Shown piece after piece: positions 1 through 45,483 of a stretch of DNA of 51,628 nucleotides (position 1 is the first letter of the stretch; each line of letters opens with the position of its first letter). The translations under genes and the position numbers were made by a program. The notes under the pieces are model-generated. The model was not told the origin of the DNA, did no database searches, and worked only from the letters and a program-made list of their open reading frames with translations. The stretch is taken from contig JACPLF010000007.1 in NCBI GenBank assembly GCA_016186645.1, positions 192,651 through 244,278 on the forward strand. Reading direction: 5' to 3'. Source of the stretch: Candidatus Levyibacteriota bacterium (GTDB lineage Bacteria; Patescibacteriota; Microgenomatia; Levybacterales; UBA12049).

Positions 1-794
1 TCCAAATTGTGCCTGCCCAAAAGTTTTATTTTTTTAGTATCAATAATTTTTTCTTTCTTACCATCGCTGCTTATCCAAACACAATCTTTGCCGACAAAAC
101 ATCCATTGACTACTTCTCTTTCGCGGCTAACTTGAAAAACTTTTCCCAATGTATGAATACCTGATTCATGGCTTGCCGGATAGTCTTTATTTATGATTGC
201 GAAATCTTGAGGAGTTTGAAATCTCAAAATATTTCTTTTTGCATTAACGTAATCTTCTAACGTCTTGTGATAATCCAAATGCTCCTGGGTTATCATCAGG
301 ATAACTGCAATATGGGGCCCACCCGCCGGCGAGGCAAAAGATTTTTTCAAATCATTAAGCTGGTATGATGACATTTCCAGAACAGTCCAAGAATGATCGT
401 TTAGCTTGTTTATAAAGTCCAAAGGTGATTGACCAATATTCCCTCCCAGATAAACATCTAGACCTTGAGCCTCTAACATTTCATAAATAAGCCTTGAGGT
501 AGTACTTTTTCCTTTTGTACCCGTAACTCCAATTACTTTTCCTTTTGCATTAGATAAAAAAATATTTGTTGCAGTTGTGTATGGAATTGCAATAAGTTCT
601 GGTTTTACTCCCGGAGATTTTACAGCAATATCATAATCTTTTTGTCTGTCTAAATAATTTTCCCCATCTTTTCTATCAACAGTGTCAATCACAGGGTTTG
701 GCAAATGTTTTTTAAGATACTTAAGCGTGGCATTTCCCTCGATTCCTTTCCCAACAATTAATATTTTTTTGTTTTTTAATTCTCCAAGTTTCAT
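1..794 (-). CDS. murD: UDP-MurNAc-L-Ala:glutamate ligase (MurD family, probably MurD2 type); 3' end runs off the window
   Basis: Manual translation from ATG at 794: MKLGELKNKKILIVGKGIEG...KSPGV...VIGVTGTKGKSTT (P-loop)...GGNIG...VLEMSSYQL...EHLDYH...LLGRHNLE. ATGA overlap with the stop of the upstream gene (791-794). Confidence 0.9.
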   Translation of the reverse strand, partial: MKLGELKNKKILIVGKGIEGNATLKYLKKHLPNPVIDTVDRKDGENYLDRQKDYDIAVKSPGVKPELIAIPYTTATNIFLSNAKGKVIGVTGTKGKSTTSRLIYEMLEAQGLDVYLGGNIGQSPLDFINKLNDHSWTVLEMSSYQLNDLKKSFASPAGGPHIAVILMITQEHLDYHKTLEDYVNAKRNILRFQTPQDFAIINKDYPASHESGIHTLGKVFQVSREREVVNGCFVGKDCVWISSDGKKEKIIDTKKIKLLGRHNL

Positions 795-2041
795 ATTGCT
801 TTATAAGAGCTGATGAGTTTAGTATTATTAAACTCCCCTCTTTTAATAATTTCCGATAATGCTTCTTTTACTTCTTCAGGCGTACCAACGCATTCAAATG
901 GCTTAAAATTTCTAACTCCTATTAATTCTTCAAAAAGAGGAAGTAAGCTTATTTCATCCAAAAGATTTTTTCCAAAAATAGCCAAAATCTTTTCTTTTGG
1001 CAAAAAAGCTGCAAGAGATATAAAAACAAAAAGACACTTTGCGCACTCCCCGCACCACTTACCCGACACCTTCGAGGAGTCCATTCGGCCACCTCGAAGG
1101 TGGGTCTTGTTTATCTTAAAATTGCTATTACATGATGAAAAAACTTTAAAATACTTTGGGTATTTTGCAAATTCTTTTGCAACTTCCAATTCATTCATGT
1201 TACGAAGGGGTGAAGAATAGGAAATATCCGGTGTTACAAACTTTTTAACATATTCTCTAAAAAGGTTTTCAAACTCCTCAGACTTGCTCCATTGGTGATT
1301 AATAGTTTGTCCTAAATATTCTACGTTCCCATAGTTTGCACTTTTCTCGTTCCCAACAGTAAAAGATTTATAATCATAAAGTGCTGCAGTCATCAAACCT
1401 AAAAAAGCATAAATAGCAGATATTGGAATGTGTCCATTATAAGTTTCTTTTTCTTTATTAAAATCAAACAGTTTAGGATCTAGCTCCCTTTTGATAACAA
1501 TTGGTTTTTTGCCAATAGCAAGAGCTACTTCCTCTTGAGTTTTCGATGTTCCAACTGTAAAAAGGTCAAAATCCTTGTTTTGTGCTTTCAAAATCTCTGC
1601 TGTTACAATAGAATCTTTTCCTCCGCCAAGACCCAAAAGAGCACGGGCTTTTCGAGGATATGAAATTGGATCTTGAGAATTTTTTATAAACGGAAATTGT
1701 ATTAAACCTCTAAAGTCAATCTTGTTTTTGTAGAAAAACTCTCCTAATCCCTTCGTATAGACAACATTCCAAAATTTAGCCTGCTGCCTGCTTAAAAAAT
1801 TATTTTCGATAATAATTTTCCGGGGACAATGCAACTTCCAATACGAAATTCCCAAAATAAGCATTAGATTATTAAAAATTGATTCAAGCAGAACCTCAGG
1901 AACTTTATTCACAACCCGCGGAAAAGAGATTTTCTCCGTAAAATCTATATTTCCCCCACTTCTAAAACCAAAGCGAAAAAGAACCTCGCCTTTTTCAAGG
2001 TTTGATTCATAACCATTAAATACAAATGATGGGCTTTTCAT
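791..2041 (-). CDS. murL: UDP-MurNAc-L-Ala-L-Glu epimerase (MurL family)
   Basis: PP-loop-like LGLGGGKDS plus YNGHIPISA, VGNEKSAN, NHQWSKS, FSSCN, WCGECAKC and KPFECVG, which I recognise as the MurL motif set; translationally coupled to murD. Confidence 0.75.
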   Translation of the reverse strand: MKSPSFVFNGYESNLEKGEVLFRFGFRSGGNIDFTEKISFPRVVNKVPEVLLESIFNNLMLILGISYWKLHCPRKIIIENNFLSRQQAKFWNVVYTKGLGEFFYKNKIDFRGLIQFPFIKNSQDPISYPRKARALLGLGGGKDSIVTAEILKAQNKDFDLFTVGTSKTQEEVALAIGKKPIVIKRELDPKLFDFNKEKETYNGHIPISAIYAFLGLMTAALYDYKSFTVGNEKSANYGNVEYLGQTINHQWSKSEEFENLFREYVKKFVTPDISYSSPLRNMNELEVAKEFAKYPKYFKVFSSCNSNFKINKTHLRGGRMDSSKVSGKWCGECAKCLFVFISLAAFLPKEKILAIFGKNLLDEISLLPLFEELIGVRNFKPFECVGTPEEVKEALSEIIKRGEFNNTKLISSYKAI

Positions 2042-2086
2042 GGGTATATTATATTCGATAAGAGGGGTTTTTACTAATTGAAAATA

Positions 2087-2275
2087 TTATTCTATCGCAT
2101 AGCTACCGAGGCGTCTAAGATGATCTTCTCCATAACGCTCCTCTCTCATTTTTCTAAGTATGCTCGTGCTATCTTCTCCTTTAGCAAGTTCCACACCATA
2201 CTTTTCTCTAAATGCAAGAATATCTTCTACTACTTTTTCTATTTTTGATTTGGGTCTTTTGAATATAATTTTCAT
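2087..2275 (-). CDS. Small hypothetical protein, possibly an orphan antitoxin-like protein
   Basis: 62-aa ATG ORF filling the gap between tRNA-Met and murL. The C-terminal DSTSILRKMREER resembles VapB-type antitoxin tails; no toxin is adjacent. Confidence 0.4.
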   Translation of the reverse strand: MKIIFKRPKSKIEKVVEDILAFREKYGVELAKGEDSTSILRKMREERYGEDHLRRLGSYAIE

Positions 2276-2300
2276 AAAAAATACTACACAATTCTTTTTG

Positions 2301-2372
2301 TACCAACGACAGGATTCGAACCTGTGATCGATCGCTTATGAAACGATTGCTCTACCGCTGAGCTACGTTGGC
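2301..2372 (-). tRNA. tRNA with CAT anticodon (elongator Met most likely)
   Basis: Cloverleaf: acceptor GCCAACG/CGTTGGT, D-arm GCTC..GAGC, anticodon stem ATCGT/GCGAT with loop TTCATAA, T-loop TTCGAAT, discriminator A. No encoded CCA. Confidence 0.9.
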
Positions 2373-2382
2373 GCGCCTCACT

Positions 2383-2421
2383 ATTCTAGCAGTTGATTTA
2401 AAAGAGGTCAAACATTATAAT
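2383..2421. promoter_or_regulatory. Overlapping divergent sigma70 promoters for the two CAT tRNAs
   Basis: + strand: TTGATT(2393-2398)-17 bp-TATAAT(2416-2421). - strand: TTGACC(2411-2406)-17 bp-TAGAAT(2388-2383). Confidence 0.65.
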
Positions 2422-2430
2422 ATTTAGACG

Positions 2431-2499
2431 CGCGGGGTAGTGTACAGTGCACGTGAGGCTCATAATCTCACAGGTCGGGCGCAACTCCCGACCCCGCAA
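2431..2499 (+). tRNA. Atypical initiator-like tRNA-fMet (CAT), 69 nt
   Basis: 5' CGCGGGG and 3' CCCCGCA-A with the C1:A72 mismatch typical of initiators; anticodon loop CTCATAA. The D-loop is only 5 nt (ACAGT) and the T-loop is CGCAACT. Confidence 0.75.
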
Positions 2500-2506
2500 C
2501 ACAGAA

Positions 2507-2839
2507 TTAGAAAAATAGATTCCACCACTGTTTCCAGTTCGGATCTTGGACTTTTTCTTTTTTCACCGCTTCCTCCGAATCTTTTGATATTAAAATCCTT
2601 TGCTCGCCTTTTTTAACCATTAAGAGTTTATCGCGAGCCTGCTTTTCTATAAATTCCCGTGTCTTTGAGTAAGATAAAGCGGACTTGAGCCTCTGACCCT
2701 CCTGTTTTTGGAAACTTAATTCCTTCTGGGCCTCTGTTACGAAGTCTTTTTTCTGCCAGATATCATAAATCGAGCGTATAAGATTATTAATAATAACCAG
2801 CAATATAGCCACAACCGTTACAAACAAAATTTTTTTCAT
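2507..2839 (-). CDS. Septum formation initiator family protein (FtsB/DivIC-like)
   Basis: N-terminal TM helix, coiled coil, then FIEKQARDKLLMVKKGE, matching the DivIC/FtsB pattern E..AR..L.M..PGE. Confidence 0.7.
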   Translation of the reverse strand: MKKILFVTVVAILLVIINNLIRSIYDIWQKKDFVTEAQKELSFQKQEGQRLKSALSYSKTREFIEKQARDKLLMVKKGEQRILISKDSEEAVKKEKVQDPNWKQWWNLFF

Positions 2840-2892
2840 TCTTGACTTATAGTTACTTTATTGATATTATAGGCTATCTAAAATTACAAATT

Positions 2893-3765
2893 ATGAAAAC
2901 TATCGACATCAAAGACGCGCATCGCGAGTTCAAGAAATATTTAAGCGAAAACAGACGTTCGAACTCTACCATTGTAGCATACGGAAAAGATATAGAGCAG
3001 CTCGTAAGTTTCTTAGAAGAGCTATCAAAAAACCATATTCATGAGGTTACAAGGGGAGATCTGGAGTCATTTTTGGCTAAAATGACCAAAAACGGCTATA
3101 CTCCAAAATCTATATCACGAAAGCTTAACTCAACCAGAACTTTTTATAGATTTTTAAAAGTAAATAAATATGTAACAGATGATCCTTCCCTTTTGGTTGC
3201 GCACCCAACATATCAATTGGCAGCTCCCCGTATTTTAACGCCTACAGAATATAGAGCATTGAGAGATGCTGCGAGGCCGGACTCAAGAATGTTTGCTATT
3301 ATCGAACTCTTACTTCAAACTGGAATCAGAATCGGTGAATTGGCTGCTTTGAAACTTTCTGATATTCAAAAAGAGGGGCTTAGAATTGCACCAATGGAAA
3401 AACACTTGGAGAGAATAGTTCCCCTTAACAAAAGAGCAAAAGAAGCATTGGATAAATATTTGGAAGTAAAACCCAATACGCCAACTAGCGAAAAATCAGG
3501 TCATTTATTTATCACCAAATCCGGAAAAGCTTTCTTAATAAGAAATATCAGAACTGCGGTTGAAAGATATTTTAGATTAGCTGAGATAAAAAATGCAAAA
3601 GTAAATGATCTTCGCCACACCTTTGTTGCGCATCATCTCAAACATGGAGTTTCTCTGGTTCTTATTTCAAAAGTTCTAGGACACAAAAGAATTTCAACAA
3701 CCGAAAGATATTTGGAATACGTTCCGGACCGCGCCCGCGAAAACGGCATCCTTACAGAACTCTAA
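2893..3765 (+). CDS. XerC/XerD-like tyrosine recombinase
   Basis: SAM-like N-domain (RSNSTIVAYGKDIEQ...SISRKLNSTRTFYRFL) and catalytic boxes LLLQTGIRIGEL, DLRHTF, LGHKRISTTERY. Start placed at ATG 2893 (ORF track starts at 2842). Confidence 0.9.
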   Translation: MKTIDIKDAHREFKKYLSENRRSNSTIVAYGKDIEQLVSFLEELSKNHIHEVTRGDLESFLAKMTKNGYTPKSISRKLNSTRTFYRFLKVNKYVTDDPSLLVAHPTYQLAAPRILTPTEYRALRDAARPDSRMFAIIELLLQTGIRIGELAALKLSDIQKEGLRIAPMEKHLERIVPLNKRAKEALDKYLEVKPNTPTSEKSGHLFITKSGKAFLIRNIRTAVERYFRLAEIKNAKVNDLRHTFVAHHLKHGVSLVLISKVLGHKRISTTERYLEYVPDRARENGILTEL

Positions 3766-16863: not shown

Positions 16864-18165
16864 TTATTTTCTTAATCTCTTTACGTCTCTCCACCCAATA
16901 TCTGTTCTAAAATGAAGATTATTGCCTTCAATGCTTAATAAAAACATTGCATCATACGCACGTTTCCGCGCTTCAATAACAGCTTTTCCTTCTCCCACCA
17001 CATGAAATAATCTTCCTGATGAAACAAAATATTTATCTTTGTCTTTGGTCACCCTCGCACCGTATAAAGTTATCCCCTTAAGCCTGAGTGCTTTTTCTAT
17101 ACCAAACAGTTCTCTTTTTTTATTTATTGCTCCCGGACGAAGCGACCCTGTAACTGCAACTCGTGACTTACCATCAACTATAATCTTGAAATTTCTTAGA
17201 TTGCCTTGCGCTACATTCATTGAAAGTTCAAAAAAGTCATTTTCTATACCCGGCACGAGAACTTCTGCTTCCGGATCGCCCCATCGCGCATTAAATTCAA
17301 TAACAAAAACCTTACCTTCCACAACCATTCCTCCCAAATATAAAACACCTTTATATGGGCGCTTTTCAGAAGCTAAGCCCAAAACTGTTTTTTTGAATAT
17401 TAATTCTCCCTGTTTATAAATTTTTTTATTCACAACAGATGTTGGTGTAATACAGCCAATTCCACCGGTATTTGGTCCTAAGTCGCGGTCATATAATCTT
17501 TTGTAGTCTTCCGCACATCCTAATATCTGGAATGTGCTACCGTCTGTTATTGCAAACATGGAAAACTCTTCCCCTACAAGCCATTCCTCAATAACAAAAG
17601 TCTCTCCTGATTTTCCAAATCTATCCATTTGCTTAATTGCTTTAATAGCTTCCTTTGCATTCTCTGCAGGGATTGCACCTTTTCCTTCAGCAAGACCTGA
17701 TGCTTTAATAAAAAATCGTTTAGAGGGATTTTTATTTATAAAATTTATTGCTTTTTTTTGGGAATTAAATATATGATAATCAGGAGACGGGATTTTATAC
17801 TTCTTCATAAACTCCCGAGCCCAAGCCTTATCCCATTCTATTTGTCCTGCCGCATGTGTCGGGCCTACAACATTAAATTTTTCTTTCGTTAGCTTATCAA
17901 CAAGACCTGTTTCTACTGCATTATCTTGAGCAACATCAGCTAAGTCTACTTTTTCTTTTTTAGAGATTTTCAGAATTTCCTTAAGGCTTGTTGTTTTTAA
18001 ATTTGGGAAAATTTTAACAGGTTTTTGGGAATTAATTTTCATTAAATCATTCCCCGGAATAACAATTATTTTTGAAACGTGCGGACTTTGGGAATATTTA
18101 TGTACCAAGACTGCCCCTCTTCCTCCCCCATCAATAACCAAAACAGTATTGCCTTTTTTCTTCAT
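16864..18165 (-). CDS. purD: Phosphoribosylamine--glycine ligase
   Basis: [68 protein letters not shown] overlap with ruvC. Confidence 0.88.
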
Positions 18166-18641
18166 CTTAATTTTTTATTTGTAAAAGCGTGGGTGAGGGC
18201 GACTGCTAAAGCATCTGCAACATCATCAGGCTTGGGAATTTCCGGAAGTTTTAATAAAACTTTAACCATTTGTCCAATTTGCGCTTTTTCCGCCCTTCCA
18301 TAACCGGTTATTGCCATTTTTACTTGTAAGGGCGTATAAATTGCAGTTTTAAGACCAAAATTTGCCGCAGCCAAAAGCACTACTCCTCTTGCCTGTCCGA
18401 CAATCAATGCTGTTTTCGCATTAGTATTGAAAAATAACTCCTCGATTGCCAAAACATCCGGCTTGTGTTTTTTTATTAATTCTGTAATTGCCTTATAAAC
18501 CGTAAGCAATCTTTTTTCTACGGGAATATTCACTTTCGTTTCCGCACATCCATAATTTTGCACTTTGCACTTTGCATTTTGCACTTCAACGATTCCCCAT
18601 CCGCATCTTGCAATCCCCGGATCAATTCCCAAAATTTTCAT
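18162..18641 (-). CDS. ruvC: Crossover junction endodeoxyribonuclease RuvC
   Basis: [49 protein letters not shown]. Confidence 0.96.
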
Positions 18642-19937: not shown

Positions 19938-19955
19938 ACTATGTAATTAAAACTT

Positions 19956-20007
19956 TAAAGTTAAAAGTGAAAAGTTAATTTTGAACTTTGCATTTTGAAT
20001 TTTGAAT
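19956..20007. repeat. Inverted heptamer arrays in the spacer downstream of valS
   Basis: taaagtt-aaaagtg-aaaagtt followed by ttttgaa-ctttgca-ttttgaa-ttttgaa. Confidence 0.65.
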
Positions 20008-22182
20008 TTATTTTGGCCAGGTTTCAACCATTATGGATTTACCAAATTTAAGTCTCTGGTAGATTTCCTCGGTCACAAAAGGCATAAAAGGATGAAGAAG
20101 CTTTAAAAGTATTAAGTATAATGTATTAAGTATTATGTATGAATCAGGATTAATCCTATTTTTAATATCCTCAATATATTTATCTGCAAATTCGTGCCAA
20201 ACGAAATCGTAAAGCCCTTCAGCAGCGTAGTTAAAATTATATTTATCTAAATCATTCGTAACTTTTCCTATTAATTCGCTCACCTTTTCAATCATCGCTT
20301 TATCATTTTTATGTTTAGCTTTCTTTTTCAATTCCTCAATACTTACTACTTGATACTTACTACTTGATACATTCTTCATCTCAATAAACCGCCCCATATT
20401 CCACAACTTATTTGTAAATTTTCTTGCTGCATCAAGCTTGGGATAGGATAAGGCTTGATCATTACCGGTTGCGTTGCCATAAATTAAGGCAAAACGAACC
20501 GCATCTGCACCATATTGTTCAACCAATTCCAATGGATTGACAACATTCCCTTTGGACTTGCTCATTTTTTTTCCATAAGGATCGTTAACCAGCCCATGGA
20601 ATAATACATTATTAAACGGAACTTTTCCCGTTACATAAATACCCATCATAACCATTCGTGAAACCCAAGCTTTCAGAAGGTCGTATCCTGTTTCCATAAC
20701 AGAAGTTGGGTAAAACTTTTCAAAATCCCCATTGTAAGGGCTTGCCCTGAGTGCAGCGAATGGCCACTGAGAAGATGAAAACCAAGTGTCAAGTGTATCC
20801 TGATCTTGTTCTAAATTGGCTGAGTCACACTGCAGGCACTTCTTTGGTTTAGCACCATCAGTGACAGTCCAATGCCCATTGTCAGATATCGGAGTTCGGA
20901 GTTCGGATGGTTTAGGCTCTGATTTCCCACTTCTGATTTCCGACTTCTGGCACTTCCATGCAGGAATTTGAATTCCCCAAACAATTTGCCTTGAAATATT
21001 CCAATCTCTCAAATTTTCAAGCCATAAAAAATATTGTTTTTCAAAATTCGAAGGAGTAATTTTAATTTTCCCATCTTTAACTGCCTGTATTGCTTTTTGG
21101 CTCAAGGGTTTTACTTTTACAAACCATTGTTCCAAAGGCAAAGGCTGCAGCACATTTTTGCATTTATAGCAAACTCCTATTCTGTTTTTATAATTCTCGT
21201 CTATTTTCTCTATTAATCCCTTTTTCTGCATCTCTTCAACCACAGCCTTTCTTGCCTGCCTAACATACAAACCTTCAAATTTACCTGCAAAACGATTCAT
21301 TTTTCCATCAAATCCAATAACTTGTTTTAATGGCAGATTGTGGCGCTTTGCAACTTCAAAATCATTAAAATCATGAGCAGGAGTTATTTTTACAACTCCT
21401 GTTCCAAATTTCTGATCAACTGACTCATCTCCAATTACTTTTATTTTTGCTTTTCCTAACACTGTTTCTATTTCAATTTGCCGGCCAATATATTTTTGAT
21501 AACGCTTGTCCTGAGGATGAACAGCTACTCCAGTATCTCCGAACTTTGTCTCAGGACGGGTTGTTGCCAGAACCAAAGGTCCGTATTTTATATAATAAAG
21601 CGGGCTAATTCTTTCCTCATGAACTATTTCTAAATCCGAGAATGAAGTTCCATCAAACGTGCAATAATTAACCAGCCGATAATCGCGGTAAACCAATCCA
21701 TCATCATACATTTTTTTGAATGTTTTATGTACAAGTTTTACAATATCCGGATCAAGAGTGTATTTCGCCCTAGACCAATCTAAGGAAAAACCAAGGGTTC
21801 TCAATTGACTCTCTATTCCTCCCCTGTGTTCATTCACGTATTCTTCAATCATTTTGTAAAGAGTTTCTCTGTCAAAATCCAAGCGGGACTTTCCCTGATT
21901 TTTTAATCTTTTCTCAAAAACAAATTGAGTTTCTATTCCCGCGTGATCAGTTCCAGGAAGCCAAAGCGCAGCTTCCCCTTTCATCCTGTGGAAACGCACT
22001 AAAATATCTTCAATAGCAAACATTGCGTGGCCAAAATGAAGCGCTCCATTTGCATTTGGAGGCGGCAAAATTATTGAGTAAGGTTTGCCTTGCGGATTTA
22101 TTTCCGGCTTAAAATATCCTGAATTCTCCCATTCTTTATAAATTCTCTCCTCAACATCTTTGTGACTATAAACTTTATCCAT
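20008..22182 (-). CDS. valS: Valine--tRNA ligase (short form without the C-terminal coiled coil)
   Basis: PPPNANGALHFGHA (HIGH), PGTDHAGI, DWNISRQIVWG, DTLDTWFSS, KMSKSKGN, LLHPFMPFVTEEIY; ends at ETWPK. Confidence 0.96.
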   Translation of the reverse strand: MDKVYSHKDVEERIYKEWENSGYFKPEINPQGKPYSIILPPPNANGALHFGHAMFAIEDILVRFHRMKGEAALWLPGTDHAGIETQFVFEKRLKNQGKSRLDFDRETLYKMIEEYVNEHRGGIESQLRTLGFSLDWSRAKYTLDPDIVKLVHKTFKKMYDDGLVYRDYRLVNYCTFDGTSFSDLEIVHEERISPLYYIKYGPLVLATTRPETKFGDTGVAVHPQDKRYQKYIGRQIEIETVLGKAKIKVIGDESVDQKFGTGVVKITPAHDFNDFEVAKRHNLPLKQVIGFDGKMNRFAGKFEGLYVRQARKAVVEEMQKKGLIEKIDENYKNRIGVCYKCKNVLQPLPLEQWFVKVKPLSQKAIQAVKDGKIKITPSNFEKQYFLWLENLRDWNISRQIVWGIQIPAWKCQKSEIRSGKSEPKPSELRTPISDNGHWTVTDGAKPKKCLQCDSANLEQDQDTLDTWFSSSQWPFAALRASPYNGDFEKFYPTSVMETGYDLLKAWVSRMVMMGIYVTGKVPFNNVLFHGLVNDPYGKKMSKSKGNVVNPLELVEQYGADAVRFALIYGNATGNDQALSYPKLDAARKFTNKLWNMGRFIEMKNVSSSKYQVVSIEELKKKAKHKNDKAMIEKVSELIGKVTNDLDKYNFNYAAEGLYDFVWHEFADKYIEDIKNRINPDSYIILNTLYLILLKLLHPFMPFVTEEIYQRLKFGKSIMVETWPK

Positions 22183-30639: not shown

Positions 30640-31944
30640 CTATTTTAATGGCTTATTGTACCAACATAATCCCAAAATAAAAGTCAGCAATAATTGTCCT
30701 TGTTGTAGGGTCAAGAAGTAATGGTCAAACAATCCCAAGATAATTATTAATGATAAAGGATAAATGATGAATGAAGAATTAATCCTTCTGTATGTTTGGA
30801 CTAAAAACCAAAAGAAAAAGGAAAAACCTATAATTCCTGTTTCGGAAAATATTAATAAGAAAATATTATGAACCGGTTGTAAGTAAAATAGGGGAGTATG
30901 CGCCTTTTGATAATCAGGTAAATTTATTAAAAAGTTATTTAAGCCTACTCCAAAGACAAGATTGTCTCTAATCATTGCTATTGAACTTTTAATAAGACTT
31001 TCTCTTTGCACAATTGACTCGTCTGTCAATTTCAAGCTAGCAAATCTTGTTCCTAAAGGTGTTGTTAAACCTAAAACTAAAATCAAACCCAGAGAAAGAA
31101 TTATGATATAAGATTTAAGATTTACGAATCTTCTGAAAATATAGATCCCCAAAATTACAAACCACAAAACAATTGCAATGCGGCTTAATGTTAATAAGAG
31201 CGAAGCTGTGCCGATTATAACTGACAACTTAAGAAAGATTTCCTTCATACTTAATACTTTATACTTAATGCTTGCTACTATTAGCGTCATCGCAATAATA
31301 AGATGCCCTGCGAGTACATTGGGGTGGGAGAATGTACCATATGGACGAAGAAATAATTCTCCTCCTAAGGAAGCATTTGCTATGCCCGGAGTATTGGAAT
31401 TAAAAAGTCTCTCGCCAAAAAAATAAAAGATGCCCTGCAAGGATCCGTGATTAATATATTGCGCAAAAGCAAGAAAGGATTCAAAAACTATACCAATTGA
31501 GAACATTAATAGTATGTTTGCAAATTTTAATTTATTAGTATCTTGAGCTACGTAAAATCCCACAAAGCTAAATTCCAAGATTTTTATTGCTCCATAAATT
31601 CCGACCTGGGGGCTTTTTGATAAAGCAATACCGATTATTAAACACAAGGCAAAAATAACAATTGGAAATTGGGGTTTGATTAGAAATTTTCTTCTATTAA
31701 AAATCCACAAAATGAAGATTAACAAAATAAGTGTGTCGGTTGCATACATGGTGGGGGAGAGATAGTCTATGCGAACTCCTTTGATAAAAGCAAAATCCGG
31801 CCAAAAATGAACACCTAATTGTGTGGGAATGAAAAGAATAAGAGAATATAAAAGAAGCCTTTGAATATTATTTAGATTTTGGCTTGACAACCAGAACCCT
31901 GTCGCGGCCTTCGCCTTGGGATTCTGAAATAACTTCTTCATCAC
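30640..31944 (-). CDS. O-antigen ligase/Wzy_C-family membrane protein (true start possibly TTG at 31890)
   Basis: About 12 TM segments; RPYGTFSHPNVLAG, LLLTLSR, R...I..S..MI.DN..FGVG.NNF, PVHN.FL...SETGIIG. Confidence 0.8.
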   Translation of the reverse strand: MMKKLFQNPKAKAATGFWLSSQNLNNIQRLLLYSLILFIPTQLGVHFWPDFAFIKGVRIDYLSPTMYATDTLILLIFILWIFNRRKFLIKPQFPIVIFALCLIIGIALSKSPQVGIYGAIKILEFSFVGFYVAQDTNKLKFANILLMFSIGIVFESFLAFAQYINHGSLQGIFYFFGERLFNSNTPGIANASLGGELFLRPYGTFSHPNVLAGHLIIAMTLIVASIKYKVLSMKEIFLKLSVIIGTASLLLTLSRIAIVLWFVILGIYIFRRFVNLKSYIIILSLGLILVLGLTTPLGTRFASLKLTDESIVQRESLIKSSIAMIRDNLVFGVGLNNFLINLPDYQKAHTPLFYLQPVHNIFLLIFSETGIIGFSFFFWFLVQTYRRINSSFIIYPLSLIIILGLFDHYFLTLQQGQLLLTFILGLCWYNKPLK

Positions 31945-42119: not shown

Positions 42120-42899
42120 TTATTTAATCATGTAAGGCAAGTGATGCTTAAATGAATTTTTCAAAGCCCAATCAATTATTTTTTTTGCATTTGGGAATCC
42201 TTTTGAGATTATTTCAGAAAGACTGTTTTTCCGCTCATTATAAAGATATAGAACATTGTCTGCTTCTTTGTAGGAAAAACCAAAATCTCCTTCATCAGTC
42301 TGTCCTATCCACAATCCCGCAGTCGGGGGTAAATCTATTATTGATTGAGGAATGCTTAAATATTTAGCAAGCTCATAAACCTGAGTTTTATACAAATGCT
42401 GTATTGGCTCAAAATCCGATGCCTCATCGCCAAAGCGGGTAAAATATCCAAGAAGTTTTTCTGATTTGTTTTCTGTTCCGCAGACAAGACCGTTATGTTT
42501 TTTAGCAATGTCATAAAGAATTATCATTCTGACTCTTGCCATTATATTTCCGAGACGCACTTGTTCCACCTGGAACAGGTGTAAATTTCTAAAAGAATCA
42601 ACAGCATCTTTGATGGAAATGTTATAGATATTTTTTTGAGGGATATTTGCTTTCTTAAACATTTGTTTAATAAGACCAATTTGGGATTTAAAATAATATA
42701 AATGGGCAACAAAAATATTCTGTGGAGGAATAGATTTTGCAAGAAGAGAGAGACTAACAGCGGAATCTATGCCTCCGGAGACTCCAATGACAACATTTTT
42801 AAAGTTCTGTTTTTGAAGAACAGTTTTGATAAAAGATACGATTTTTTTTGTTTCCGCAGATGGATTTATGTTTAGTAGATTATTGTTAAATTGTTTCAT
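42120..42899 (-). CDS. nadE: NH3-dependent NAD+ synthetase
   Basis: VIGVSGGIDSA, GNIMARVRM, GTENKSE..LGYFTRFGD, LYKTQV, PTAGLWIGQTDE. Start placed at ATG 42899. Confidence 0.92.
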   Translation of the reverse strand: MKQFNNNLLNINPSAETKKIVSFIKTVLQKQNFKNVVIGVSGGIDSAVSLSLLAKSIPPQNIFVAHLYYFKSQIGLIKQMFKKANIPQKNIYNISIKDAVDSFRNLHLFQVEQVRLGNIMARVRMIILYDIAKKHNGLVCGTENKSEKLLGYFTRFGDEASDFEPIQHLYKTQVYELAKYLSIPQSIIDLPPTAGLWIGQTDEGDFGFSYKEADNVLYLYNERKNSLSEIISKGFPNAKKIIDWALKNSFKHHLPYMIK

Positions 42900-42966
42900 T
42901 GTTGTCGCTCGCTTTGCTCGCTCATTGTTGATTTTTAGCAATTTAGCAATATAACAATTGAGCAAT
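42882..42966. repeat. Inverted octamer arrays without cargo (candidate empty site)
   Basis: ATTG-type units attgttaa, attgtttc, attgttgt and attgttga (42882-42931, interrupted by cgctcgctttgctcgctc), then CAAT-type units ttagcaat, ttagcaat, ataacaat, tgagcaat (42935-42966). Confidence 0.7.
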
Positions 42967-42975
42967 GAAAATTAT

Positions 42976-43599
42976 TTACCTGTATAGTTTATTTCGTATT
43001 ATATACTTTTCCACCTTTTTTGGCACTAAATTTGAAATGGATTTTCCTTCTTTTACCATTTTTTTAATTTGTGAGGAAGAGACATCAATAGGTTTAAAAG
43101 ATTTTTTGTTAATAAAAGTTGTATGTTTTTCGTCATTCTGGCTTGTCCAGAATCTCCAAAAAGAAGTGATTCTGGAGTCCTCACTGCGTTCGTCCCCAGA
43201 ATGACTAAATCCTTTTCTTGAAATAATTATTAAGCCAAATTTTCCTATAATTTCCTGCCAACTTTTCCATTTCGTAAAATTTTTTATTTGGTCTTCGCCT
43301 ATAATCCAAACAAAGTGATCTTTTGAATAAAGTTTTTTTAATTCATTTAAGGTGTCTATGGTGTAGCTTATTTTACCTCTTTTTATTTCCAAATCGGAAA
43401 CTTCTATATTTTTCTCTTCCAGGAGTTTTGCCATTGCCAGTCTATGTTTAGCTTGAATTAATTTTTTTGCAAACGGATGAATATTAACCGGCATTAATAT
43501 TACTTTGCGAATCTTTCGTAATTTTAAAACATTTTTTGCAATTGTTAAGTGTCCGTTGTGGCTAGGATCAAAGCTTGCTCCCAAAACAGCAATATTCAT
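42976..43599 (-). CDS. nadD: Nicotinate-nucleotide adenylyltransferase
   Basis: GASFDPSHNGH, HRLAM, SYTIDTL, IIGEDQ, WKSWQEI, VSSSQIK. ATG 43599 overlaps the pilin stop (ATGA). Confidence 0.9.
   Translation of the reverse strand: MNIAVLGASFDPSHNGHLTIAKNVLKLRKIRKVILMPVNIHPFAKKLIQAKHRLAMAKLLEEKNIEVSDLEIKRGKISYTIDTLNELKKLYSKDHFVWIIGEDQIKNFTKWKSWQEIIGKFGLIIISRKGFSHSGDERSEDSRITSFWRFWTSQNDEKHTTFINKKSFKPIDVSSSQIKKMVKEGKSISNLVPKKVEKYIIRNKLYR
43131..43205. repeat. 75-bp REP doublet inserted in frame in nadD
   Basis: CGTC-ATTCTGG-cttgt-CCAGAATC (43131-43154) plus an opposite-orientation unit gtgattctgg...ccagaatgac (43166-43205); encodes SHSGDERSEDSRITSFWRFWTSQND. Confidence 0.75.
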
Positions 43600-43979
43600 A
43601 AACAATCTGAGGCTGGTTGAAGAAGAAGGCAAAGAAAATCGTATCCAAAAAAAGCTCCGATCATATTTATTGCAGTAAAAGACAGGAAGATAACAATCAG
43701 GCCCAGAATTGCATACATTGTTCTCTTTCTGCCGATTTGAAGCTTTTCTTTTTGTCCTTCGGACATGATCATCTCCAATCCGCCTTTTGCTATGAAATAT
43801 AAAGCAACCAAGATGGCGATAACCAAAGTAAGCTCAATAAAAACGCGTATTGCGTCTGTTCCCGTGCCGGAAAGCCCGCCGGTTGGCACACCTTTGGGCA
43901 AGAGAGGCACGGGTGTTAGATTTATCTTTTCAGAATCTATATTAGAAAAACCTGGTATTGATAACGTTAAATATTTCAT
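43596..43979 (-). CDS. VirB2/TrbC-like pilin
   Basis: KGGLEMIMSEGQKEKLQIGRKRTMYAILGLIV between two hydrophobic helices. Confidence 0.7.
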   Translation of the reverse strand: MKYLTLSIPGFSNIDSEKINLTPVPLLPKGVPTGGLSGTGTDAIRVFIELTLVIAILVALYFIAKGGLEMIMSEGQKEKLQIGRKRTMYAILGLIVIFLSFTAINMIGAFFGYDFLCLLLQPASDCL

Positions 43980-44002
43980 TAATTTGAAATTATATTATAT
44001 TA

Positions 44003-44441
44003 ATTGTTAAATTGCTATATTGCTAAATTGTTATTATTTTTTTAACTTTTCATTAGTAAATTTTATCAATTGGTGAATTTCTATAGGTAAATTCTGCAAC
44101 TCTTTTAGTATATGGGCATACTCCTCTGAAGTTAGAAGTTTTCTTACTTTGGATTTTTCATTCCAGTCAAGACTTTCTTTTATAGAGCCGAAACTATAAT
44201 AATAGAACTTTATCTTGTCTTTTTTGCCATATCTTCCAAACCCTTCAGCGATATTCGCAGAGATAGAATCAACAGCTTCAACGAATTGACTACCTACGGT
44301 CTTTTTTGCAAACCAATCCCATTTAATGACTATATCCCACACATAATTAGATAAAGCCAAAGATTTCTTATATGCGCTAGTATCATTGAGTTCCAGATAT
44401 TTCACTAGTTTAACAATTTAATAATTTAACAGTTTAGCAAT
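44003..44441. mobile_element. Putative cassette: four-helix-bundle gene between inverted 4x8-nt arrays
   Basis: Left attgttaa-attgctat-attgctaa-attgttat (44003-44034); right ttaacaat-ttaataat-ttaacagt-ttagcaat (44410-44441). Mobility is inferred, not shown. Confidence 0.5.
44034..44405 (-). CDS. Four helix bundle protein (23S rRNA-IVS-protein-like family)
   Basis: YKKSLALSNYVW...QFVEAVDSISANIAEGFGRY...KFYYYSFGSIKESLDW. Confidence 0.88.
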   Translation of the reverse strand: MKYLELNDTSAYKKSLALSNYVWDIVIKWDWFAKKTVGSQFVEAVDSISANIAEGFGRYGKKDKIKFYYYSFGSIKESLDWNEKSKVRKLLTSEEYAHILKELQNLPIEIHQLIKFTNEKLKK

Positions 44442-45235
44442 TATTTTGAAAAGCCAGGGATTTTCAAAATATCCACTCCGATTATTTGTAATATAACAAA
44501 TGAGAAAATAATAAACAAAAGTCCGACAATTGCCGAAGTTAACGTTTCGGTTGCAGATTTAACCGCTTCCGGATTGCCCTGGGACGCCATAAATTTGTAG
44601 CCTGAAACCATAATTAAAATTAAAGCAATTCCTCCGGCAAGCCCCAAAACCAAAGTAAAAATCGACCGCACAAATCCCTGAGGCTCAGTACTTATTTGTC
44701 CAATCGCAGTATCTACACAGGTGCACTTCCCGTCTATAAAACATCCCTCCGCACAGGGAGGGGAAGGGACAGGGATTTGCTCATCGGAAGAAAGCGCAGC
44801 GTTAACCGCGATAGGGATTTTGCTTACGATATTGTTCTGGTCTGCACAATCAGATAAGGGAGATTCTTTTGAACAGACCTCAAGTGTCCATGTGCCGGGA
44901 TTACTTTTTCCGATAGCTCCTTGAGACAGATTAAGATTAGCTATTATGGTTTGTGAATCTTGAGGATTTTTTCTGTCTACGGCATAGTTCGCAAAAAGTC
45001 CACCGGAAGTTACATCTTGAGGATGTGCAAAAATAGTATATTTTACTGGCGTTTGAAAATTACAATCCGAAGTAGTTATTGTAACATTGCCGTTATAGTC
45101 AGAAGGAAACGAATTGGGATTAGCATTGATTGAGCAAGCGTAAGAAGGTGTGACTAAAAAGAAAAAGACAATTGAAAACGCAAAAAAAATTAAAATATTT
45201 AAACAGGTTTTCCTCACTCTTCCATCGTAGCTCAA
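44441..45235 (-). CDS. Pilin-like protein with an N-terminal extracellular Cys-containing beta domain
   Basis: Signal peptide (PSYAC), beta-rich domain, C-X3-C-X5-C-X-C cluster, then CVDTAIG..TEPQGF and SGYKFMASQGNPEAVKSATETLTSAIVGLLFIIFS. Confidence 0.75.
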   Translation of the reverse strand: MSYDGRVRKTCLNILIFFAFSIVFFFLVTPSYACSINANPNSFPSDYNGNVTITTSDCNFQTPVKYTIFAHPQDVTSGGLFANYAVDRKNPQDSQTIIANLNLSQGAIGKSNPGTWTLEVCSKESPLSDCADQNNIVSKIPIAVNAALSSDEQIPVPSPPCAEGCFIDGKCTCVDTAIGQISTEPQGFVRSIFTLVLGLAGGIALILIMVSGYKFMASQGNPEAVKSATETLTSAIVGLLFIIFSFVILQIIGVDILKIPGFSK

Positions 45236-45261: not shown

Positions 45262-45483
45262 CTGGACGGTAGATGGTGGGGGTAGAATCTTTGAGGATGG
45301 TTAGAATATTTGAAGTGGGAAGTTCTTGACCTTTTTGAAATTGATCGCAGAATTGATGTTTTGAATATTTGAAGACTTGAAATCCCTTGGTCGAGAAATC
45401 AAAGAATCAAAAAATCAACGTCAAAAACTTCTCACTTCCAACTTCAAAGATTCCAACCTCTATTGTCTAATTTTCCCGTCCAG
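45262..45483. repeat. About 220-bp imperfect foldback built from 7-8-nt units
   Basis: Nested IRs: 45262-45269/45476-45483 (perfect 8 bp); 45299-45330/45420-45458 (4 mismatches plus one extra 7-nt unit); 45353-45372/45399-45418 (3 mismatches). Confidence 0.75.

Follow-up and report, generated by a model that had tools for sequence, protein, structure and literature searches.

A four-helix-bundle gene framed by inverted octamer arrays

The stretch analysed here (the window, 51.6 kb from contig JACPLF010000007.1 of a Candidatus Levyibacteriota bacterium) carries a 443-nt cassette, in which a gene for a small four-helix-bundle (4HB) protein is framed by two inverted arms of tandem octamers. The cassette is located between two pilin-like genes of an operon and consists of the following parts.

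44001..44443, minus strand: whole cassette, comprising 5' arm, 4HB gene and 3' arm (443 nt)
44034-44405, minus strand: 4HB gene, a 372-nt open reading frame (ORF) encoding 123 residues; S23p / 23S_rRNA_IVP / Avd-like family
44409..44443, minus strand: 5' arm, with its four in-phase units at 44409-44441, which reads ATTGCTAA ACTGTTAA ATTATTAA ATTGTTAA on the gene strand
44003..44034, minus strand: 3' arm, which reads ATTGTTAA ATTGCTAT ATTGCTAA ATTGTTAT on the plus strand

Along the gene strand, the upstream pilin-like gene ends in a stop codon, which is followed by four octamers, 4 nt, a GTG start with the 372-nt ORF running to TAA, four complementary octamers, 24 nt and the ATG of the next pilin-like gene. 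The 5' arm shares bases with the upstream stop codon and leaves 4 nt to the GTG; the 3' arm is of the reverse-complementary type and begins at the stop codon of the 4HB gene. Nearly all of the gap to the neighbouring genes is taken up by the arms. The original prediction, made from the letters of this DNA, had placed four units on each side of the gene. This is exact for the left arm on the plus strand, which has four perfect ATTGYTAW units at 44003, 44011, 44019 and 44027. The right arm has two exact units, at 44410 and 44434, and two more in phase with one mismatch each (TTAATAAT, TTAACAGT), so that its count of four depends on allowing one mismatch per unit. The two arms (44001-44033 and 44411-44443, 33 nt each) are 82% complementary. 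Each arm is built of four tandem octamers, with a hexamer core ATTG(T/C)T and two free bases per unit, giving two inverted arms of ~32 nt.

In the whole window, ATTGYT units form chains (two units or more, spaced exactly 8 nt apart) only at the cassette and at 42882-42966, and period-8 autocorrelation adds only 45353-45419. The GC content of the genome is 36.7%. The neighbours on either side of the cassette are as follows.

44441-45235, minus strand: upstream neighbour, a type IV secretion system (T4SS)-pilin-like gene
43596-43979, minus strand: downstream neighbour, a pilin-like gene

All neighbouring genes lie on the minus strand and encode T4SS-pilin-like proteins, a NadD-like cytidylyltransferase and NadE, followed by PrgI-like, TraG-like and unknown proteins. 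Within ~7 kb of the cassette there is no gene for a transposase, integrase or reverse transcriptase, in agreement with the prediction of a discrete, transposase-free unit. Searches for long direct repeat pairs in 42800-44500, for a second 4HB gene in the window and for matches to PADLOC defence-system models were negative. Rfam likewise has no RNA family at the cassette, its only return being a sub-threshold chance match to a miRNA at 45360-45413.

Family, fold and constraint of the encoded protein

The 4HB protein is basic, with an isoelectric point of 9.2. Its sole Pfam match is PF05635 (E=2.8e-19, 69.7 bits against a cutoff of 33.8), and it also matches TIGR02436 (E=3.9e-21, 75.3 bits against a cut-off of 24). 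An AlphaFold2 model from a mixed-subfamily alignment has a pLDDT of 95.4 and four helices (residues 10-26, 31-57, 61-87 and 93-120); a model from a shallow alignment (pLDDT 47.6) was discarded. Structural similarity search using Foldseek revealed XCC0516 (PDB 2GSC) as the best match, with a TM score of 0.86-0.92 and an rmsd of 1.2 Å, followed by BT_0352 (2RLD, 0.74-0.84) and Avd (4DWL, 0.73-0.83), the accessory protein of diversity-generating retroelements (DGRs). The Avd chains of the DGR ribonucleoprotein 8UB7 also match (~0.7-0.8), and 2GSC and 2RLD have five chains each. A single-sequence search of the PDB gave no match for the protein, and a profile search gave weak matches with E ~0.15. 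The membership in the S23p family and the kinship to Avd, both put forward in the original prediction, are borne out by these matches.

The family motif GxxRxxxSxxxNxxE (Lin 2006; Zhang 2014) is retained in part. Residues S47, N51 and E54 of the motif are invariant, as are A53, G55, R58, G73, S74 and E77; the motif arginine is replaced in the subfamily of the window, by E43 in the window itself and by threonine in the subfamily consensus. Against the two closest copies, dN/dS amounts to 0.076 and 0.060, which indicates strong purifying selection. Compared with other lineages, 75-82% of the residues are kept at a synonymous divergence (pS) of 0.7-1.0, that is, at saturation. Since synonymous sites are saturated, the likeness across phyla reflects extreme constraint and not very recent transfer, and the repeat core, being unchanged over the same divergence, is under selection too. 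The distribution of the cassette is incongruent with the host phylogeny. In small samples, the 4HB gene has a dS of 0.27 and 0.40, two- to fourfold below the adjoining genes (0.60-1.29), which suggests either a more recent exchange or a constraint on silent sites.

Repeat-framed genes across the family

A scan of one genome per species yielded 80 homologous loci, with protein identities of 63-82% to the 4HB protein of the window. The hosts include Patescibacteria, Bacteroidota, Gammaproteobacteria, Ignavibacteria, Planctomycetota, Dadabacteria and others. With an array defined as at least two ATTGYT units (ARCAAT downstream) at 8-nt spacing within 130 nt of the gene, arrays stand upstream in 58/80 loci, downstream in 56/80 and on both sides in 46/80, as the original prediction would have it for homologues in general. 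The rest of the same loci gives a background of 0.08 arrays per kb, or ~0.011 per flank. The resulting enrichment of ~65-fold per flank is specific for period, core and polarity, and among the periods only 8 is enriched. In the unit logo, positions 1-6 hold 1.1-1.96 bits and positions 7-8 only 0.06-0.25 bits, both arms being alike; the core is ATTG(T 0.77 / C 0.22)T in both arms, followed by two nearly information-free bases. The modal arm length is four units. Flanking genes are mostly co-directional (65/75 upstream, 57/70 downstream), at median gaps of 55 nt and 43.5 nt. Gene-less inverted doublets are dispersed as well, at 42882-42966 of the window and in three further loci (L014, L061 and L042).

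Other subfamilies have the same layout with units of their own. In Xanthomonas campestris, relatives of XCC0516 sit between accB and accC with four GGGAATC units on each side; relatives at the gap|pgk junction have the unit GTGACNN, and a Vreelandella copy has GTGAGTN. Bacteroidaceae relatives of BT_0352 lie between araD and araA, framed by AATTGAC and its complement. Four further subfamilies with their own units are found among the loci analysed, and three more in orthologous pilin operons. Two different units occur 1-2 kb apart within one genome in L086, L079 and L090, and therefore the unit travels with the cassette, not with the host. One araD-4HB-araA locus (L116) has both arm types on each side (735-800 and 1152-1232), with AATTGAC runs followed by AATTGTC; there, each flank may form its own hairpin instead of one stem across the gene.

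A gene with inverted tandem-repeat arms is thus a property of this gene family in many phyla, not of the window locus. The family is large: relatives of the 4HB protein form 1359 clusters at 50% identity, with more than 4000 near relatives. As far as the full-text literature was searched, with most subscription journals outside its coverage, no description of the general repeat-framed arrangement was found and it appears not to have been described previously.

Gain, exchange and loss at orthologous junctions

The operon of the window was compared with metagenome contigs that carry relatives of the NadD-like gene. It has the order pil264-[X]-pil127-NadD-[Y]-NadE-pil150-pil117, in which X and Y are the two junctions of interest. 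Site X holds the same cassette in the window, L093 and L101-104 (protein identity 94-95%). It is empty in L082 and L083, with 16 nt from stop to start and no array, and is occupied by a different subfamily with heptamers in L085, L086 and L088 and by a fourth subfamily with AGCGTCT / AGACGCT in L089. In L084, the 5' arm, the first 11 codons of a window-type gene and the 3' arm follow one another within 120 nt. Site Y is a tight junction without array in L083 and L084; in L082 and L083, arrays are absent at both sites alike. A gene-less pair stands at site Y in the window, gene-less pairs with other units in L081, L087 and L088, and a third 4HB subfamily in L085 and L086.

The comparison shows that cassettes of several subfamilies have been gained at junctions of co-directional genes and that one junction can take different subfamilies. 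The arrangement in L084 is the remnant of an internal deletion and is the decisive case: gene-less pairs can arise by deletion of the gene from a filled cassette. What remains of a cassette after such internal decay is a gene-less arm pair, and 42882-42966 is most likely one of these. In L101, a half-array of the fourth type (GAACGCT AGACGCT) directly follows the window-type cassette at ~900-975, a vestige of cassettes having occupied this junction one after the other.

Two observations concern the NadD-NadE pair. The pilin operon of L101-L103, in which the 4HB protein is 94% identical, lacks the pair but is otherwise syntenic. The NadD-NadE segment of the window (cf. 42120-43632) is bounded by the window-type arrays 44002-44027 and 42934-42959, which are 92% complementary.

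The gene-less pair at 42882-42966 and other micro-arrays

The gene-less pair at site Y of the window has three parts.

42934..42966, minus strand: 5' arm on the gene strand, ATTGCTCA ATTGTTAT ATTGCTAA ATTGCTAA, located just after the NadD-like gene
42904..42933, minus strand: spacer of ~30 nt with no recognisable remnant of a 4HB gene
42882..42903, minus strand: 3' arm, holding the NadE start codon (42897-42899) and encoding MKQFNNN

As the original prediction had stated, the same two arm types occur here in the same orientation with no gene between them. Three ATTGTT units, the spacer and four xxARCAAT units follow one another with the polarity of the gene-bearing cassette, and the 26 nt (42934-42959) of the 5' arm are those that are 92% complementary to the cassette arm 44002-44027. 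The further statement that the arms supply the N-terminus of NadE also proved right: the ATG (minus strand) lies inside the array, and the array units encode MKQFNNN. Orthologous NadE proteins begin with MSN, MSD or MDK and are free of array-encoded codons. The two sites had been taken as filled and empty states of one cassette. Presence and absence at orthologous junctions were indeed found, in the form of filled, empty, other-subfamily and gene-less alleles. An array-only site as the empty target was not upheld, and 42882-42966 is most likely a decayed cassette rather than a virgin target, because truly empty orthologous junctions have no arrays (L082, L083) and the pair in L084 derives from gene deletion in a filled cassette.

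Two other micro-arrays are present in intergenic regions of the window.

45353..45419, no strand assigned: gene-less inverted octamer pair with the core TTGAA-NNN / NNN-TTCAA and four octamers per arm, noted in the original prediction as the 45.3-kb foldback
19945..20014, no strand assigned: heptamer array pair AAAGTTA / TTTTGAA, between the gene for valyl-tRNA synthetase (ValRS) and the next gene

The first lies in a divergent intergenic region, and its fold pairs the 5-nt cores and leaves the 3-nt spacers as regular internal loops. It is an element of the same class as the cassette from another repeat family, and 19945-20014 is probably a further, decayed member of the class. The idea that such micro-arrays and the foldback are footprints of the cassette therefore stands as to class, but the repeat units are different. 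The pair at 19945-20014 folds as the plus strand only, through G-U pairs (-12.5 versus -2.9 kcal/mol), and both flanking genes are on the minus strand.

Short-period repeats are also found inside ORFs. The RuvC ORF (18162-18641, minus strand) holds four TTTGCAC heptamers at 18552-18589, in frame and coding; the Pfam match runs end to end (protein 3-151 versus profile 1-148), and the array therefore replaces the normal hairpin region instead of lengthening RuvC. Period-7 runs at 20106-20143, 20338-20365, 20879-20909 and 30740-31276 lie inside ValRS and the 434-residue ORF at 30640-31944, and ValRS has an inverted pair AAGTATT / AATACTT ~195 nt apart. A nested palindrome of ~75 nt (GTCATTCTGG...CCAGAATGAC) stands in frame within the NadD-like ORF at 43127-43205. 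Its metagenome contig depth of 65-128, against a baseline of 8-14, marks it as a repeated element; it is shared with the NadD of L081, L084 has another insert in the same loop, and the other orthologues have none.

Array copies in groundwater metagenomes

A search of sequencing runs found the window sequence in no RNA run but in four groundwater DNA runs, where contig depth rises from 8-14 to 360-3480 exactly at the arrays. At the 3' arm of the cassette (44003..44034), depth reaches 1051-3479 over the same baseline. In one run (X2), the Logan unitig 44004-44440 is a separate, array-bounded piece of 437 nt. Many contigs with unrelated flanks end at arrays, and several join two arms over short spacers. 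Window-type arrays are abundant across the groundwater community, and assemblies break at them. On one side, the arm-to-arm joints in the source metagenomes extend for no more than 20-30 nt; an origin at other loci is most likely, and they say nothing on excision at the window locus. Within NadE, one contig at about genome depth joins 42284 to 42406, skipping 121 nt, in all four runs, and depth at 42363-42483 is raised two- to threefold.

Relation to known repeat systems

The closest relatives of the cassette are the S23p intervening sequences (IVSs) of 23S rRNA. The IVS of Coxiella burnetii is 428-444 nt long, with a 28-bp terminal stem and an S23p ORF; three to four tandem GACAGAT heptamers, in numbers that vary between strains, precede the S23p ATG, and RNase III excises the IVS with its 5' cut at the first repeat (PMC4990558, Warrier et al. 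2016). Like the IVSs of Leptospira, Coxiella and Brucella (Ralph & McClelland 1993), the cassette has a single PF05635 ORF within an element in the ~0.4-0.8 kb range (443 nt here), complementary termini that form a stem of ~28-33 bp, three to four tandem 7-8-nt repeats of variable copy number directly 5' of the ORF, and a sporadic, horizontally acquired distribution without transposase. The resemblance to IVSs drawn in the original prediction is a close one, the anatomy being that of the Coxiella element. There are differences as well. The IVSs reside in helix 9, 25 or 45 of 23S rRNA, whereas the cassette lies between protein genes of an mRNA operon; a crude motif screen found no rRNA signature motif, and hence no cassette inside an rRNA gene, in any inspected locus. 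Both cassette arms are wholly made of tandem units, the protein of the window is strongly constrained whereas the Coxiella copy is decaying, and the cassette family has gene-less derivatives and subfamily-specific units. The cassette belongs to the S23p-IVS kind, which is known, and has a new setting and a generalised anatomy; the new mobile system that had been suspected is not wholly new.

GGGAATC / GGGGA(C/T)T heptamers are known from Xanthomonas and Nostoc (Rehm et al. 2015, PMC4692102). The GGGAATC heptamers of Xanthomonas were described with a preference for four units, for which a G-quadruplex was proposed; they lie between aligned ORFs, within 50 bp of starts or stops, are transcribed and form 70-75 convergent pairs (PMC4692102). 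Exactly this unit frames the 4HB gene in Xanthomonas, although the text of PMC4692102 does not mention a 4HB/S23p gene. The AT-rich octamers, although unable to form quadruplexes, show a preference for four units as well. The STRR repeats of cyanobacteria may be comparable to the heptamers of Xanthomonas and Nostoc.

Resemblance to the repetitive extragenic palindromes (REPs), their inverted doublets (REPINs) and the associated RAYT genes (PMC3116915) lies in the dispersed intergenic inverted doublets, the repeat-flanked cognate gene and the repeat family that goes with the gene family. However, RAYT is an HUH (IS200/IS605-like) tyrosine transposase and 4HB is a small helical bundle without known catalytic residues, and the cassette arms are tandem arrays, not single palindromes. 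Avd shares the four-helix-bundle fold and the basic character, and the homologues are pentameric and nucleic-acid-binding; the identity is only ~8-10%, however, and neither a reverse transcriptase nor template/variable repeats lie near the 4HB gene. Like miniature inverted-repeat transposable elements, the gene-less pairs are short, occur in large numbers between genes and form hairpins, but no parent transposase and no target-site duplication were seen, and at least the pair in L084 originated from an in-place deletion. The family has also been reported inside cas operons (PMC3936711, PMC10910872), where it may represent insertions between co-directional genes.

Pairing and possible reading of the arms

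Both the minimum free energy and the centroid fold of the cassette RNA are closed by an arm-arm stem around the ORF. Across the loci, the mean duplex energy of the arms is -25.0 kcal/mol, compared to -15.7 kcal/mol for shuffled arms, and the variable positions agree more often between arms of the same cassette (0.655) than across loci (0.573; 0/500 permutations). In seven loci both arms have switched to ATGGTT/AACCAT, which constitutes a compensated change. None of the seven is the nearest protein relative of another, and the switches were therefore apparently several and independent.

The pattern of conservation favours a sequence-specific reading of the core, because a stem alone would permit compensated drift of the core, yet the core is fixed across phyla and the spacers are free. 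The subfamily-specific units are further, comparative evidence for such reading.

Mechanistic interpretation

On the whole we lean towards reading 44001-44443 as a compact, horizontally spread cassette of the S23p-IVS kind between protein genes of an operon, whose arms pair and are processed by RNase III and whose protein reads the repeat core. We infer that the cassette is read through with the host operon, as there is no room for a promoter of its own, that RNase III processes the stem and that the protein recognises the core. The arms would pair into an interrupted stem of ~33 bp that closes off the gene; RNase III would cut this stem, as in the IVSs of Coxiella and Leptospira, and the insert would be released from the host transcript or insulated inside it, with little harm to the host. 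A pentameric 4HB protein would recognise the hexamer core that recurs in its own arms, at either the RNA or the DNA level.

Several points weigh against this reading. Co-transcription and RNase III cleavage are proposed by analogy with the IVSs. Sense and antisense pairing of the arms is equally stable (-25.03 versus -25.04 kcal/mol, p=0.76), and the wobble-capable core position 5 has the same use of C and T in both arms. A G-U strand bias as a signature of RNA was sought in pairing energies and position-5 base use and not found; with no such sign of selection on one strand, a hairpin at the DNA level or a double-stranded binding site fits as well. Arm complementarity stems mostly from the shared core, with -29.5 kcal/mol for own arms versus -26.3 kcal/mol for arms combined across loci (p=0.04). 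As to recognition, the distribution of the ATGGTT variants departs from the protein tree, and one protein clade with a co-evolved specificity was thereby ruled out. Xanthomonas-type proteins that are 65-75% identical to the 2GSC query fragment bear different units, so that no simple one-to-one code links protein and repeat; arms most often have four units, whereas the solved homologues are pentamers. Finally, the cassette does not encode an insertion enzyme, and no target-site duplication is visible between the empty allele of L083 and the filled alleles, whose flanks are too diverged for base-exact borders.

A bolder proposal, which we put forward tentatively as a possibility, is that the 4HB pentamer is the sequence-specific partner of its own arms and, with host enzymes only, propagates or maintains both gene-bearing cassettes and gene-less hairpins, as a nuclease-free counterpart of REPIN/RAYT. 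In its purely DNA-level form, the pentamer would recognise the arms as hairpin, cruciform or duplex DNA, host replication and repair enzymes would help to copy or maintain cassettes and pairs, and the RNA stem would be a by-product. The unbiased pairing of the two strands agrees with this form, as do the hexamer core kept across phyla at saturated synonymous divergence with its free spacers, and the units that go with the cassette and not with the genome (L086, L079, L090). Window-type arrays at 100-250 times genome depth in the groundwater metagenomes, and many contigs there that join two arms over short unrelated spacers, point the same way, and so do the convergent GGGAATC pairs of Xanthomonas, whose 4HB gene is framed by that unit. 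We nevertheless consider the DNA-level form doubtful, given a fold with neither a known catalytic site nor a DNA-cleaving domain, a gene-less pair in L084 that needed simple deletion and no copying, the missing target-site duplication and a strong co-orientation with host genes for which a purely DNA-level element has no need.

Proteins that form rings and read tandem RNA repeats, such as the tryptophan RNA-binding attenuation protein (TRAP), typically combine a fixed core with free spacers. The 4HB protein could likewise be a domesticated regulator, a TRAP-like ring that binds the repeats at its own gene for autoregulation and those at gene-less sites, and so tunes polarity, stability or translation of neighbours such as NadE, with mobility being incidental. 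Besides the TRAP-like pattern, this would account for the very strong purifying selection (dN/dS 0.06-0.08) and for arms that abut the start codons of 4HB and of downstream host genes, those of NadE, accC and araA lying at or in an arm. It is rendered improbable by close operons that work without cassette or arrays (L082/L083), by single junctions that hold different subfamilies in different relatives, by unrelated host contexts (pilins, NAD synthesis, accBC, gap-pgk, ara and cas operons) and by a Coxiella copy that is decaying and apparently untranslated.

Far less credible is retro-mobility, in which an Avd-like protein would work with a reverse transcriptase and an RNase III-released, stem-closed RNA would pass through cDNA to integration. 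The model does match Avd and the Avd chains of the DGR ribonucleoprotein (4DWL, 8UB7; TM ~0.7-0.8), and the cassette would be a discrete transcribed unit with structured ends; no reverse transcriptase was found in or near it or in any inspected locus, nor were template/variable repeat pairs or A-biased substitutions, and the idea is purely an analogy. Chance, slippage-prone AT-rich low-complexity sequence or a repeat-joining assembly artefact, for which the AT-rich genome and the high-copy arrays that break unitigs might speak, is refuted by the period-, core- and polarity-specific enrichment in the 80 loci, by GC-rich hosts that carry GC-rich units in the same layout, and by independent contigs (L093 and L101-L104) that span the same junctions.

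Implications for the family

A functionally blank and very large protein family hereby gains a general anatomy, that of a gene with inverted tandem-repeat arms. Such units come and go between the genes of tight operons in many phyla without a recognisable transposase, and their mode of movement is now testable. Xanthomonas campestris and the Bacteroides relatives of BT_0352 are tractable carriers, for whose proteins crystal structures exist. In metagenomics, the high-copy arrays break assemblies. The cassettes are a possible source of unexplained 7-8-nt tandem repeats and intergenic hairpins, for instance of the GGGAATC repeats of Xanthomonas with their four-unit preference, and the reported association of the family with cas operons and defence islands might be due to promiscuous insertion and not to a common function. 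If the nuclease-free counterpart of REPIN/RAYT proved true, one system would unite the IVSs of 23S rRNA, the heptamers of Xanthomonas, perhaps the STRR repeats of cyanobacteria and the micro-arrays of the Candidate Phyla Radiation (CPR).

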